64,000 nucleotides of DNA from NCBI GenBank assembly GCA_018816885.1, contig JAHIUS010000001.1, forward strand, positions 8,028 through 72,027, given 5' to 3'. Below are positions 1 through 44,101 of the stretch, one piece after another (the first letter of the stretch is position 1; every line of letters starts with the position of its first letter). Both the position numbers and the translations under genes were made by a program. Below the pieces are notes generated by a model that was not told the origin of the DNA, made no database searches, and saw nothing but the letters and a program-made list of their open reading frames with translations. The DNA is from Patescibacteria group bacterium. GTDB taxonomy: Bacteria > Patescibacteriota > Gracilibacteria > UBA1369 > UBA12470.

Positions 1-264
1 GTGACGGATTGCTTCTGCTTGGCCTACTGATCCTCCTCCCAGAACTTTTGCCGATATGTCGAAGTCTTTATCTTTTTTTACAAGTTTTGCAGGTGATTTC
101 AGGATTTCCAAAAGGTCACTGGTTGGCAAGTAGTCTTTTGAGTCTTTTCCGTTTATGATGACTTTGCCGGTGCCTTTATATAGCCTGACTCTAGCGATTG
201 ATGTTTTTCTTTTACCGCATGCGTAGTAGTATTTTCCGCTGAATTTTACTGGTGAATCTGTCAT
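1..264 (-). CDS. rpsI: 30S ribosomal protein S9, N-terminal part (runs off window edge)
   Basis: Reverse translation from ATG at 264: MTDSPVKFSGKYYYACGKRKTSIARVRLYKGTGKVIINGK..., typical S9; directly downstream of rplM. Confidence 0.85.
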   Translation of the reverse strand, partial: MTDSPVKFSGKYYYACGKRKTSIARVRLYKGTGKVIINGKDSKDYLPTSDLLEILKSPAKLVKKDKDFDISAKVLGGGSVGQAEAIRH

Positions 265-273
265 GTTGATTTG

Positions 274-711
274 TTAGAGTTCGATTTTTTCAGGGTTTTG
301 GGCCTCCTGTCTGTGATTTGGGCCTGCATATACCTTTAATTTTGATAAAATGTGAGTCCTGAGTCTGTTTCTCGGGATCATGCCTTTTATGGCTTCTGTT
401 AAGATTTTCTCAGGTTTCTTTTGTAAAACTTTTTCCGCTGTTTCTCTTTTTATTCCTCCCGGGTATCCGCTGTGCCTGATGTACTCTTTTTGAGCCCATT
501 TGTTTCCTGAGAGCTTAATTTTATCTGCGTTTATGATTACGATGTAGTCTCCGCAGTCTATATGAGGGGAAAAAGTAGGCTTGTTTTTACCTCGCAGAAT
601 GTCTGCAATTTTTGTTGCCAGTCTTCCAACTGTTTTGTTTTCGGCATCTACCAGATACCATTTACGGTCTTTGTCGATTTCTTCCAGTTTTGGTGAGAAT
701 GTTTTGAACAT
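274..711 (-). CDS. rplM: 50S ribosomal protein L13
   Basis: 145 aa ORF with an L13-like sequence (RKWYLVDAENKTVGRLATKIADILRGK); rplM-rpsI order. Confidence 0.95.
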   Translation of the reverse strand: MFKTFSPKLEEIDKDRKWYLVDAENKTVGRLATKIADILRGKNKPTFSPHIDCGDYIVIINADKIKLSGNKWAQKEYIRHSGYPGGIKRETAEKVLQKKPEKILTEAIKGMIPRNRLRTHILSKLKVYAGPNHRQEAQNPEKIEL

Positions 712-746
712 GTACTTAGATAATAGATAGTAGAATTGAGGCCCTG

Positions 747-1097
747 CTAGGTCAGTTGAACATATACCATTGGAGCGTTGTCGCCGTCTCGCGGACTTGT
801 TTTGATAAGACGAGTATAGCCGGAATTCTTATCGGTATATTTTTCCGCTATTACTTCCATAAGTTTTTTTGAAGTGTTTTTATCCTGCAAGTGTTTGTTT
901 AGAAGTCTTATTGCACTTACCTTGTCCTCTTTTTTTGCGTAATTGATCAATTTGTCGACGAATCCTCTCAGTATTTTTGCTCGGGTTTCCGTTGTTTTGA
1001 TCTGCTCATGCAGAATGAGTGATTGCGCGAGAGATCTTAGAAGTGCTTCTCTTCGGCTTTTTCCTATCCGGATTGTTCGTTTCTTATTGTGCTGCAT
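747..1097 (-). CDS. rplQ: 50S ribosomal protein L17
   Basis: 116 aa ORF, L17-like (LGKSRREALLRSLAQSLILHEQIKTT); follows rpoA. Confidence 0.95.
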   Translation of the reverse strand: MQHNKKRTIRIGKSRREALLRSLAQSLILHEQIKTTETRAKILRGFVDKLINYAKKEDKVSAIRLLNKHLQDKNTSKKLMEVIAEKYTDKNSGYTRLIKTSPRDGDNAPMVYVQLT

Positions 1098-1141
1098 TGT
1101 TTAGATAGTAGTTAGATGTGGAGGGCATGCGGCGACCTCTT

Positions 1142-2119
1142 TTATTCTTCTCCCGAAAGGGCTAGATCGCGGGTTTTTAGTGCGTCGCTTACTTCAGTTA
1201 AAGCTTTTTTCCCGAATCCCCTGAGATTATTGAGTTTGGATTCCGTACATTTGGTTAGTTGCTCGATAGATCCGATACCTCCATTGATTAGAGAATTGAG
1301 CGTTCTTGGTGAAAGCCCCAATATTTCTATCGGTGTGTACATTTCTTGAGATGGTTTGAGTGAATCTTCTTCGGCTGTTTTTTGTGCGATTTTTTCAAAA
1401 TCACTCATGAATTCCGCTTCAACGGGAACATCCGCTTTGTCGAATATTTCGAAATATGAGGTTAGAACATTTGCAGCGAATTTTACCGCATCTTCAGGTT
1501 CGAGGGAGCCGTTTGTTTCAATCTCCATTACGAGTTTGTCGAGATTTGTCATTTTTCCTACACGCGTTGCTTCGACATCGTATTTGATTTTTTTGACCGG
1601 GCCGAAAACGGCATCAACTTCAATCATCTCCGCATCTTGTCCGTCTTTTTTCTCCAAGGTTGCAGGTTTGTACCCCACTCCTTTTTCGACGAAGATTTCT
1701 ATATCGAGCTTAGTGCCTTTCTCGATTGTCGTAATATAAAGTTCTTTATTAAGAACTTTAACATCACCGGGAGCCTTGATTGATTTTGCAGTAACTTCTC
1801 CGGCTGCGTTGGCTGAAAGCGTCAGTATGGAAATTTCTGTTGTTTCTTTCTGTACATTGAGTTGTTTCAGATTCAATATGATGTCCAGTACGCTTTCTTT
1901 CACTCCTTTTATCGTAGTGTATTCGTGAGATACTCCTTTTATTTTTATTCCCGATACCGCCGCACCCGGAAGAGATGAAAGCATAACTCTTCTAAGAGCG
2001 TTTCCCAAGGTCATTCCGTATCCTGACGGAAGGGGACTTATCGTGACTATCGCGTAATGATCGTCTTTATGTTCGACGGTTATTTTTGGAAGTCCGATTT
2101 CTTCTTGGATAATGTGCAT
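1142..2119 (-). CDS. rpoA: DNA-directed RNA polymerase subunit alpha
   Basis: 325 aa, N-terminal and C-terminal alpha domains recognisable (GNALRRVMLSSLPG...; LGLSPRTLNSL). Confidence 0.95.
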   Translation of the reverse strand: MHIIQEEIGLPKITVEHKDDHYAIVTISPLPSGYGMTLGNALRRVMLSSLPGAAVSGIKIKGVSHEYTTIKGVKESVLDIILNLKQLNVQKETTEISILTLSANAAGEVTAKSIKAPGDVKVLNKELYITTIEKGTKLDIEIFVEKGVGYKPATLEKKDGQDAEMIEVDAVFGPVKKIKYDVEATRVGKMTNLDKLVMEIETNGSLEPEDAVKFAANVLTSYFEIFDKADVPVEAEFMSDFEKIAQKTAEEDSLKPSQEMYTPIEILGLSPRTLNSLINGGIGSIEQLTKCTESKLNNLRGFGKKALTEVSDALKTRDLALSGEE

Positions 2120-2162
2120 TTTTTAGGATTTAGGATGTAGGGTTTAGCTTAAGTTTTTATTT

Positions 2163-42875: not shown

Positions 42876-42899
42876 GGGGTTAGGGTCTAGGGTTTAGGG
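42876..42899 (+). repeat. GGGG-TTA-GGG-TCTA-GGG-TTTA-GGG array in the gap leader
   Basis: Direct reading; 7-bp period, four G-tracts. Confidence 0.85.
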
Positions 42900-42995
42900 T
42901 AGAGTGGCTAGCGATGGTTATTATAGCGGAAAATTGGGATTTTGAAGGCAGTAAGTCTTGACTATTTTTCAAAACTGTTTTTTAAATATACTGCT

Positions 42996-43487
42996 ATGAA
43001 TTGGAACAAGATTTTAACAATTTTGCAAGAAGGGGGGATTATTACGCATCCAACAGATACGTGTTACGGTCTTGCGTGTGATCCTTTTAATGAAAAGGCT
43101 GCCCGGGAATTGTATGAATTAAAGGGTATGCCGCGGGAAAAACCTTTGACTTGGATGGTGGGTTCGATGGGGGAGGCAATGGCTATCAAGGATTTTTCGC
43201 AGAAAGCTGTTATGTTGGCGAGCGAATGTTGGCCGGGGGATCTTACTTTGGTGATTGATGGGCAGGGGCTCCGTGTTCCGGGGGACGACTTTACTCTTGA
43301 GCTTTTGAAAAGATGGGGAGGGCCGCTTATTACTACGAGTGCTAACTTGAGTGGGGAAGAGGCTCCTTATTCTGCGGATCAGGCTCTTTCTGGAGATTTT
43401 TTGGTGGATTTTGGGAAGATACCGAGAAATAAACCTTCGAGGGTTGTGAGGGTTGAAGGGGATAGGGTGGAGGTGCTGAGGGATTAG
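42996..43487 (+). CDS. tsaC: Threonylcarbamoyl-AMP synthase (YrdC/Sua5 family)
   Basis: 163 aa, THPTDTCYGLACD, SANLSGE. Confidence 0.85.
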   Translation: MNWNKILTILQEGGIITHPTDTCYGLACDPFNEKAARELYELKGMPREKPLTWMVGSMGEAMAIKDFSQKAVMLASECWPGDLTLVIDGQGLRVPGDDFTLELLKRWGGPLITTSANLSGEEAPYSADQALSGDFLVDFGKIPRNKPSRVVRVEGDRVEVLRD

Positions 43488-43517
43488 TGTGTTGAATGTT
43501 CAATTTTCAATTGCGGT

Positions 43518-43544
43518 GTTTTGCTTTTGCAAAACGATTTTTTT
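43518..43544 (+). terminator. Intrinsic terminator after tsaC (GTTTTGC-type hairpin)
   Basis: GTTTTGC, TTTT loop, GCAAAAC, then GATTTTTTT. Confidence 0.7.
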
Positions 43545-43620
43545 GGAAATTAAACATTGAAGATTAAACGGTTTTAAAACTACCTCTACCGTCTTTATTG
43601 CAAGATAATGGCGTGAGTTT

Positions 43621-44091
43621 TTAAAGCAACACCTGCAACCCTGAAATCACTCCTGTTACGGCTAATGTGATTAATGTCCCGCTCAGGATTAGGCCGATGG
43701 TTATCAGGCAGAGGGATTTCCAGAATTCTATTCCGAGTAGAAATGCGATTAATGCGCCGGTCCAGGCTCCGCTTCCTGGTAGTGGGACCATTACGAAGAT
43801 TATGAGGAAGATTTCGCCCCAGACTATGAATTTGTGGGCGTGCTTGGAGTGTGTTTTTTTGAAAAGTTTTTCGAAGAAGTTGTCGAACCATTTGGAGTGT
43901 TTGCGGAACAGGTTCGAGATTGGGCCGAGGAGTTTCAGAATGATGATTGCAACCAAAATATTGCCGAGGATTGCCCAGATCCAGGCGTGGTATGGGTCCA
44001 TCCCGAGTACGCCTACCGCATACGGGATTCCTCCTCTAAGTTCTGTTAGAGGGAGCATTGAGAGCAGGAATGTTAGTAGTTCGTTAGGCAT
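43621..44091 (-). CDS. Small multidrug-export-like membrane protein (COG2426-like)
   Basis: 156 aa from MPNELLTF. The upstream 34 codons of the ORF are just the 14-bp repeat read through. Confidence 0.6.
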   Translation of the reverse strand: MPNELLTFLLSMLPLTELRGGIPYAVGVLGMDPYHAWIWAILGNILVAIIILKLLGPISNLFRKHSKWFDNFFEKLFKKTHSKHAHKFIVWGEIFLIIFVMVPLPGSGAWTGALIAFLLGIEFWKSLCLITIGLILSGTLITLAVTGVISGLQVLL

Positions 44092-44101
44092 TTTTTTTGT
44101 T

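Follow-up and report, generated by a model that had tools for sequence, protein, structure and literature searches.

The window analyzed here is a 64,000-nt stretch (C46:8028-72027) of the genome of a Patescibacteria group bacterium (1.26 Mb, 66 contigs, 43% G+C), and this work concerns the leaders of its genes, that is, the nucleotides directly upstream of the start codons, which as a rule lack Shine-Dalgarno (SD) sites and in the majority of cases carry a UAA(C) element. A run of 45 minus-strand genes occupies positions 1..44100 and includes ribosomal protein (r-protein), rpoBC, tuf/fusA, dnaK and gap operons, with leaders that are SD-less and G-poor near the start. Pfam confirmed ten gene identities within and beyond this run, among them S8 (rpsH), HSP70 (dnaK) and the plus-strand genes fba and pfp (PFK). 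The uL16 protein is 81% identical to those of metagenome-assembled genomes labelled Candidatus Peribacteria or Peribacteraceae, the nearest named relatives, placing the genome in the Peregrinibacteria/Peribacteria lineage of the Candidate Phyla Radiation (CPR). A simple codon-bias gene caller returned 1101 genes, and the leader set used throughout consists of the 1030 that begin with ATG and are preceded by 60 nt of sequence, with positions counted back from the start codon.

Leaders without Shine-Dalgarno sites

A preliminary description of the window had claimed that SD motifs are missing from it, and the leaders it quoted (rplP, rpsH, rpmJ, dnaK, fba and pfp) match the sequence exactly in six of six cases. 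Counting GGAG, GAGG and AGGA at -20..-3 as SD 4-mers, with -60..-43 as the control window, we found such a word in just one of the 45 minus-strand leaders of 1-44100, bearing out the claim. Genome-wide, 45/1030 leaders (4.4%) contained one, compared to 131/1030 (12.7%) in the control window (Fisher p = 9e-12), so that such words are rarer at starts than upstream of them. Expectation-maximization (EM) searches that took GGAGG or ATGCCC as their seed returned no motif with a preferred position in leaders, and no CCTCC box precedes the starts. The mean duplex energy with the genome's own 16S tail was -0.89 kcal/mol in the start region, -3.29 kcal/mol upstream and -4.51 kcal/mol within genes. Canonical SD-led initiation goes with a purine-rich GGAGG-like motif, complementary to the 16S tail, at 5-10 nt from most starts and with a conserved CCUCC in that tail, and neither is present in this genome.

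As a control of the pipeline, SD 4-mers were counted in the leaders of r-protein clusters and detected in 78% of those from Bacillales, 69% from Saccharibacteria, 41% from cyanobacteria and 3% from named Peribacteria. The recovery in Bacillales indicates that SD sites are detected where they are present. Within the CPR, the r-protein leaders of Saccharibacteria are thus SD-using and those of Peribacteria, sampled at uL16 loci from named genomes, are not, which makes the SD-less state specific to a lineage and not a general CPR trait. The absence of SD sites is real, genome-wide and common to the whole order. We also looked for a special gene that might keep its SD site, as rpsU does in Flavobacteria, and the leaders with the best pairing to the tail were unremarkable or probably miscalled.

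The composition of the leaders changes toward the start codon. G falls from 21% at -60..-41 to 18% at -40..-21 and 10% at -20..-1, while across the 1030 leaders C remains at 19% and A increases over the same distance, from 31% to 41%, and 276/1030 leaders have no G at all at -20..-1, compared to 27/1030 at -60..-41. The dip in G extends into the coding sequence as far as about codon 5, affecting the second and third positions of codons 2-5. The near-absence of G stated in the preliminary description therefore holds close to the start and is overstated further out; among the minus-strand leaders of the window, just 8/45 have at most one G over -40..-1 and 14/45 have none over -20..-1, and the average over 40 nt is 4.2 G. 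Of all stretches of the mRNA, the start region folds least, with a folding energy over -25..+15 of -2.26 kcal/mol, compared to -4.3 to -5.3 kcal/mol elsewhere, and of -1.01 kcal/mol in leaders carrying the CUA tracts described below, in agreement with the suggestion that these leaders are unstructured sequence for SD-independent loading. AUG is found at 0.52 of its expected frequency at -15..-3, and choosing the first in-frame ATG would by itself yield about 0.67. The difference that had been noticed between minus-strand and plus-strand leaders turned out to reflect gene class and not strand, as the minus-strand set consists mostly of highly expressed operon-internal cistrons.

The UAA(C) element and the CUA heptamer arrays

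UAA begins at -16..-12 in 595/1030 leaders (58%), compared to 179/1030 (17%) in a control window (p = 1e-82), and shuffling each local 7-mer gives an expectation of 284 +/- 13. UAAC shows an enrichment of about 8-fold. The top words at the site are UAA, UUAA, UAAC (199 vs 30), UUUAA, UUAAC (111 vs 11) and UAACC (97 vs 11), and the EM motif is YYUAAMMA followed by a run of A, with UUUAACC as consensus. A reaches 42-50% at -14..-11, 47% at -6 and 53% at -3. The preliminary description had raised the possibility that ACUAC and CUAAC words close to the AUG are a specific recognition element; the part of this idea that survives is CUAAC, which overlaps the real UAA(C) signal, while ACUAC/CUACU is not general.

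The element is found irrespective of where a gene stands in its operon. UAA is present in 48% of the starts that overlap the upstream gene, in 56% of those 0-8 nt behind it and in 57-61% of first genes, with a range of 48-81% over all gene-spacing classes. It shows no reading-frame preference, with UAACC counts of 32, 33 and 16 at -15, -14 and -13, respectively. Its presence at starts overlapping or abutting an upstream gene as well as at first genes points to a signal for translation rather than a promoter. In the minus-strand leaders of the window, UAA occurs at -16..-12 in 27/45 and UAAC in 18/45, and UAAC is richer there than in the rest of the genome (174/985, p = 6e-4). The UAA signature was found in every relative sampled (genomes G003, G001, G005, G004, G008, G037, G025 and G024), in named Peribacteria and in single loci labelled Gracilibacteria and Patescibacteria group, and was lacking in the r-protein loci of Saccharibacteria, Bacillales and cyanobacteria.

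The leaders had also been described as tracts of CUA and ACU words. Such tracts are real, but they are a minority, and the description was overstated: a strict tract, defined as a 24-nt window with zero G and at least three CTA, is present in 9/45 window leaders and 48/1030 leaders genome-wide, and of the remaining window leaders 8/45 carry G-containing ATGCCCN arrays and the others are plain. Once the tracts are removed, the enrichment of CUA words vanishes, as CTA, CTAC, ACTA and ACTAC are found in the 982 tract-free leaders at 0.64-0.88 of the expectation from composition; this is an outcome that the preliminary description had named in advance as one that would refute it. The spacing from one CTA to the next is 7 nt in 94/219 cases, so that the tracts are heptamer arrays. 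Their units are G-free and based on CTAC or CTAA (CTACNNN, CTAANNN, CCTAAAN), and they differ by gene and by genus.

The tracts sit on housekeeping genes. They are enriched in the minus-strand leaders of the window (9/45 vs 39/985, p = 1e-4), and elsewhere they precede the genes for PNPase, SSB, bL9, FtsZ, EF-P, GreA, NusG, the ATPase A subunit, H+-PPase and PurF. Among 96 intergenic tracts, 47 end no more than 12 nt from an ATG in the mRNA sense and 33 reach the ATG, and under a looser definition 65 leaders have a tract in sense and 14 in antisense orientation (p = 5e-9). Tract leaders have UAA at the site in 56% of cases, like the others, and UAAC in 33% (vs 18%). In three genomes together, 64 arrays contain two or more 7-nt spacings, and 33/64 of them are in the -15/-14 register, compared to 18 expected (p = 1e-4). 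TA has peaks at -22, -15/-14 and -7/-6. Tract frequency is 6% here, 21% in G003 (20.8% sense vs 1.6% antisense), 11% in G001 and 1-4% elsewhere, with G004, G005, G007 and other families having plain leaders. Orthologous r-protein leaders of sister genera carry differing units (AGCTAAA, GCCTAAA, ACTACAA and CCCTAYA), all with a CUA(A/C) core.

Individual leaders of the minus-strand run illustrate both features. The rplP leader (12046..12071, minus strand) is a G-free CUA heptamer tract up to the AUG with UAAC at -16 (UAA at 12059-12061), the rpsH leader (CACAACTACAACTAACTACCACTAAATA-ATG, 9530..9560, minus strand) is a tract of CUA words, and the dnaK leader (38388..38428, minus strand) consists of 41 nt of G-free ACTACTT-type heptamers with UUAAC at -16 (UAA at 38400-38402). 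In the fusA leader, a CAACTAACTATCAACTAAA tract (20896..20921, minus strand) preceded by an ATGCCCN array has UAAC at -15, and the rpsJ tract (17259..17286, minus strand) has CCUAACC at -16 (UAA at 17262-17264). The rpmJ leader, CCCTACTACAACTACTTCTACTAACTAAATAAA-ATG, spans 3763..3800 on the minus strand, with its ATG at 3762-3760. On the same strand, CCUAACC contains the UAA of gap at -14 (42880..42882, within CCCTAAACCCTAGACCCTAACCCC repeats) and that of adk at -15 (5688..5690), and the plain, tract-free tuf leader has the UAA of UGUAACC at -15 (18655..18657). Beyond the run, UAA lies at -15 in the plus-strand leaders of fba (47527..47529, in the consensus UUUUUAACC, with an A-rich run to the AUG) and pfp (48835..48837, in UUUUAAUA), and in the minus-strand leader of the gene at 46338-47183 (47196..47198, in UUUUAACC).

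Other repeats occupy the same spacers. ATGCCCN arrays lie in r-protein leaders at window positions 4974-5005, 20922-20950, 22573-22615 and 15963-16000, and they contain G and several upstream AUGs, which is odd for an SD-less organism, as this should be sensitive to stray AUGs. The called starts of map, rplD and serS fall inside such arrays and may be wrong. An AGCCATT array of four units (54391-54425, minus strand) directly abuts the ATG of the gene at 53326-54390. In front of many CUA tracts, at window positions 38429-38450 and at several loci on other contigs, there is a short GC hairpin and then AAACACCA(C/T), which makes for a repeated spacer layout of stop codon, hairpin, AAACACCAC, tract and ATG.

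The 16S rRNA tail and ribosome components

The preliminary description had proposed recovering the 3′ end of the 16S rRNA, and this yielded a variant anti-SD. The single 16S gene (C21:5552-7157, minus strand) ends in GCGGAUGGACCAUCUCCUUUCU, where the E. coli counterpart is GGAUCACCUCCUUA; the core reads UCUCC and the tail CAUCUCCUUUCU, without the conserved CCUCC. Elsewhere in the order, CCUCC is kept in five family-mates, and CCUCU, UCUCU and UUCCC are found in other families, and the anti-SD has drifted independently in other lineages of the order. Genomes G005, G008 and G004, with an intact CCUCC, avoid SD sites equally strongly. No plausible complement to ACUAC, CUAAC or UUAACC was found in the 3′ tail GGACCAUCUCCUUUCU, and the complements elsewhere in the 16S rRNA are a lone GGUUAA in the universally conserved head region, at about E. 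coli position 1090, and scattered 5-mers.

Script-based counting of pairs between core and trailer showed that, in 23/23 16S genes of the order, the trailer contains a word resembling an SD, 3-10 nt downstream of the anti-SD core, with which the core pairs (e.g., CUCCUU[UCU]AGGGAG). Mutated cores show matching trailer arms (CUCU/AGAG, AUUCCCU/GGGGAAU), and this compensatory drift suggests that the core is no longer held in place by thousands of SD sites in mRNAs. The hairpin is also common in other Patescibacteria and is therefore probably a general feature of pre-16S rRNA.

No match to bS21 (PF01165) was found in 8/8 genomes of the family (this one and G001-G007). In about half of the order's other families, PF01165 matches ranged from weak to clear. 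The prfB gene is a single open frame without a programmed +1 frameshift site in 13/13 genomes from across the order (G000:C20:11142-12161 in this one, and 12 relatives), and an S1 of four-domain size is encoded. In Bacteroidia, the bS21 gene (rpsU) and the prfB frameshift are the SD-dependent cases thought to preserve the anti-SD (PMC9976891, PMC10798248, PMC13000453). The 16S gene itself is 1606 nt long here, compared to about 1460-1500 nt in relatives, and an A/U-rich insertion of about 140 nt with a G/C-clamped stem is present near helix 6 (about gene positions 70-215).

Proposed initiation without anti-SD pairing, and alternatives

The reading that we favor, and consider probable, is that this organism and the surrounding Peribacteria order initiate translation without pairing between SD and anti-SD, through G-poor unfolded leaders and a UAA(C) element at about -14, with the tracts as an elaboration. 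Removing G while keeping C, A and U would leave A-U pairs as the only ones possible, so that the leader would stay single-stranded, and the 30S subunit would be captured on the open leader, probably through the encoded bS1. The UAA/A-rich element, near the mRNA exit channel, would then, along with A-6 and A-3, bring the AUG into the P site, with S1 as the likely reader of UAA(C). The CUA tracts would be a lineage-specific elaboration, in which sense-oriented heptamers, repeated in tandem and containing a single CUA(A/C) per unit, occupy the spacers of 35-50 nt in highly expressed operons and keep them free of G and unable to fold. About half of the arrays are in register, which puts one UAA at -15 or -14 and others close to -7 and -22. 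With SD pairing no longer in use, the anti-SD would be free to drift, and the constraint remaining on it would be its pairing with the pre-16S trailer. G-free repeats of A, C and U are known to enhance 30S loading without SD pairing, as in the CAA repeats of tobacco mosaic virus omega, CA-multimer enhancers and AU-rich S1 sites; all of these are single leaders of viral or synthetic origin, whereas here the system is native and genome-wide.

Several points weigh against this account. The function given to the leader signals rests on their position, their conservation and analogy, and the starts come from a crude caller, which has probably mis-set some of them, for instance within ATGCCC arrays. 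A cryogenic electron microscopy structure from Bacteroidia shows no density upstream of -3 (PMC13000457). The register of the arrays is significant only when three genomes are pooled, CUAA makes up only a third of CUA words, and the commoner CUAC is not a genome-wide motif. Of the tracts, ten are located in spacers between convergent genes and 15 run antisense to a leader, meaning that not every tract can be a translation element.

A bolder version, which we put forward only tentatively, holds that UAA(C) at about -14 could be a discrete, sequence-specific signal replacing the SD across Peribacteria, perhaps across the wider class, given one locus labelled Gracilibacteria, and that it may be read by a protein, likely S1 or a platform protein, of a ribosome without bS21 and without a working anti-SD. 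The CUA(A/C) arrays would then be tandem in-register copies of the signal, providing the cistrons of highest expression with tunable landing pads of several sites.

For the tracts, a possible but doubtful alternative is that they have no role in translation and are slippage-prone or mobile heptamer microsatellites, tolerated for being free of G and AUG, with UAA as a separate signal. The differing units at orthologous leaders of sister genera speak for fast turnover, heptamer arrays with G and even AUG (ATGCCCN, AGCCATT) occupy similar spacers, and the convergent and antisense tracts, as well as the relatives that do without any (G004, G005, G007 and other families), fit this explanation too. 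Such repeats would hardly account for the strong bias toward the sense orientation here and in G003, for the half of intergenic tracts that end close to an ATG, for the -15/-14 register, for the CUA(A/C) core retained in all variant units or for the enrichment on highly expressed genes. The UAA(C) or CUAAC word could also be a new equivalent of the SD that pairs with a complementary stretch of 16S rRNA, which its SD-like positional sharpness and its presence in internal cistrons would suit; the T7 gene-10 "epsilon" enhancer UUAACUUUA was once proposed to pair with 16S helix 17 in this manner. We consider this improbable, as the tail holds no complement, the lone GGUUAA lies in the head, a G-free leader could find partners only among the G, A and U residues of the rRNA, and tail nucleotides 1531-1535 differ among relatives that share the motif.

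That the UAA word is a promoter element, either a -10-like box or the start context of leaderless or very short-leader mRNAs, is suggested by a bump of TATAAT-like hexamers (at most one mismatch) at -15/-14, a small bump of TTGACA near -38 and a TA located exactly 7 nt 5′ of UAA in 28% of first genes and 12% of internal genes. However, of the starts that lie within upstream coding sequence or next to it, 48-56% have the UAA, and the T at the sixth position of the -10 hexamer is not enriched at the word (29% vs 31% background). In first genes, the maxima of sigma-70-like hexamers are at -41..-29 for the -10 box and at -66..-52 for the -35 box, whereas leaderless (group C) initiation would have the -10 box ending about 6-7 nt before the start. 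These peaks and the position of TA, which fits a transcription start and is weak at internal genes as expected if TA and not UAA marks that start, suggest leaders of about 20 nt, with transcription beginning near -21, upstream of UAA, and UAA inside the mRNA; a promoter role is therefore very unlikely. Least probable to us is that UAA acts as a stop codon that terminates upstream ribosomes for re-initiation at the nearby AUG. UAA is a stop codon, and its frequency reaches 81% at starts located 9-16 nt behind the end of the upstream gene, but it has no frame preference, occurs just as often at first genes that have about 20 nt of leader and divergent promoters, and has a flanking consensus, UUUAACC, that extends beyond the triplet.

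Initiation without SD pairing, as we propose it for this genome, has a close counterpart in Bacteroidia. In Flavobacterium johnsoniae, where such a scheme has been demonstrated, initiation is stimulated by A at -14..-11, -6 and -3 (PMC6847099), and the -3 purine forms a stack with G693 (PMC13000457). Both systems share the near-absence of SD sites, A at -14..-11, -6 and -3 (A-3, A-6 and A-12/-13 in F. johnsoniae; PMC6847099, PMC7797042, PMC13000457), low structure in the start region and a signal in first as well as internal cistrons. They differ in that the leaders described here have a defined UAA(C) core with U's before it and C's after it, and no depletion of C. In Bacteroidia, bS21, with bS18 and bS6, sequesters an intact anti-SD, whereas here bS21 was not detected and the anti-SD is mutated in several lineages; likewise, the SD-bearing rpsU and the prfB frameshift are retained there, and neither was found here.

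Group B of GeneMarkS-2 comprises genomes with a non-SD ribosome-binding motif about 9 nt from the start (PMC6028130). Such a motif at a fixed, short upstream distance in first and internal genes is shared with our genome, but the group was described almost wholly for the Fibrobacteres-Chlorobi-Bacteroidetes group, without discussion of Peribacteria, and has a plain run of A where UUUAACC is found here. TAACTGA heptamer direct repeats have been reported in marine Beggiatoaceae, some Cyanobacteria and Bacteroidetes, with S1, Csp or CsrA as proposed readers (PMC4679880). These too are sense tandem 7-nt units a few nucleotides from the start, present in r-protein operons and containing UAAC, and SD sites are rare in the leaders that bear them; the units found here are instead G-free and heterogeneous, change between sister genera and lie in a wholly SD-less genome.

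Earlier surveys covered the same lineage, as Ca. Peribacter riflensis had been catalogued as SD-scarce (7% SD) and lacking CCUCC (PMC10783764), and the loss of bS21 in Peregrinibacteria had been catalogued as well (PMC9297842). Few SD sites, a variant anti-SD and the absence of bS21 are thus common to these surveys and our genome, but they report no replacement motif, leader repeats or covariation of anti-SD and trailer. In the literature searched, we found neither the UUUAACC motif nor in-register arrays nor the covariation described for this lineage, and nothing specific on translation initiation in Patescibacteria or Gracilibacteria or on a UUAAC motif. While the lack of SD sites in the phylum is not new, the signal that truly recurs is UAA(C) at -14, in open, G-poor leaders, and the CUA tracts are a heptamer elaboration specific to a sub-lineage.

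To our knowledge, start-codon choice without SD pairing is understood experimentally only in Bacteroidia. The lineage studied here would have reached a similar solution, with G-poor open leaders and the same adenine positions, on a different ribosome that lacks bS21 and has a drifting anti-SD, and its upstream word, UUUAACC, is sharper than the determinants of Bacteroidia. It may thus show independently, as an experiment of nature, what features an mRNA needs at least for initiation without SD. Start prediction in CPR metagenomes should use a model with UAA at -14 instead of the SD, and the in-register heptamer arrays tie the puzzling leader repeats of the TAACTGA type to an SD-less context. 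As a minor observation on the window, plus-strand GC skew is strongly positive (0.2-0.35) at 44000-64000, compared to about 0 at 1-30 kb.

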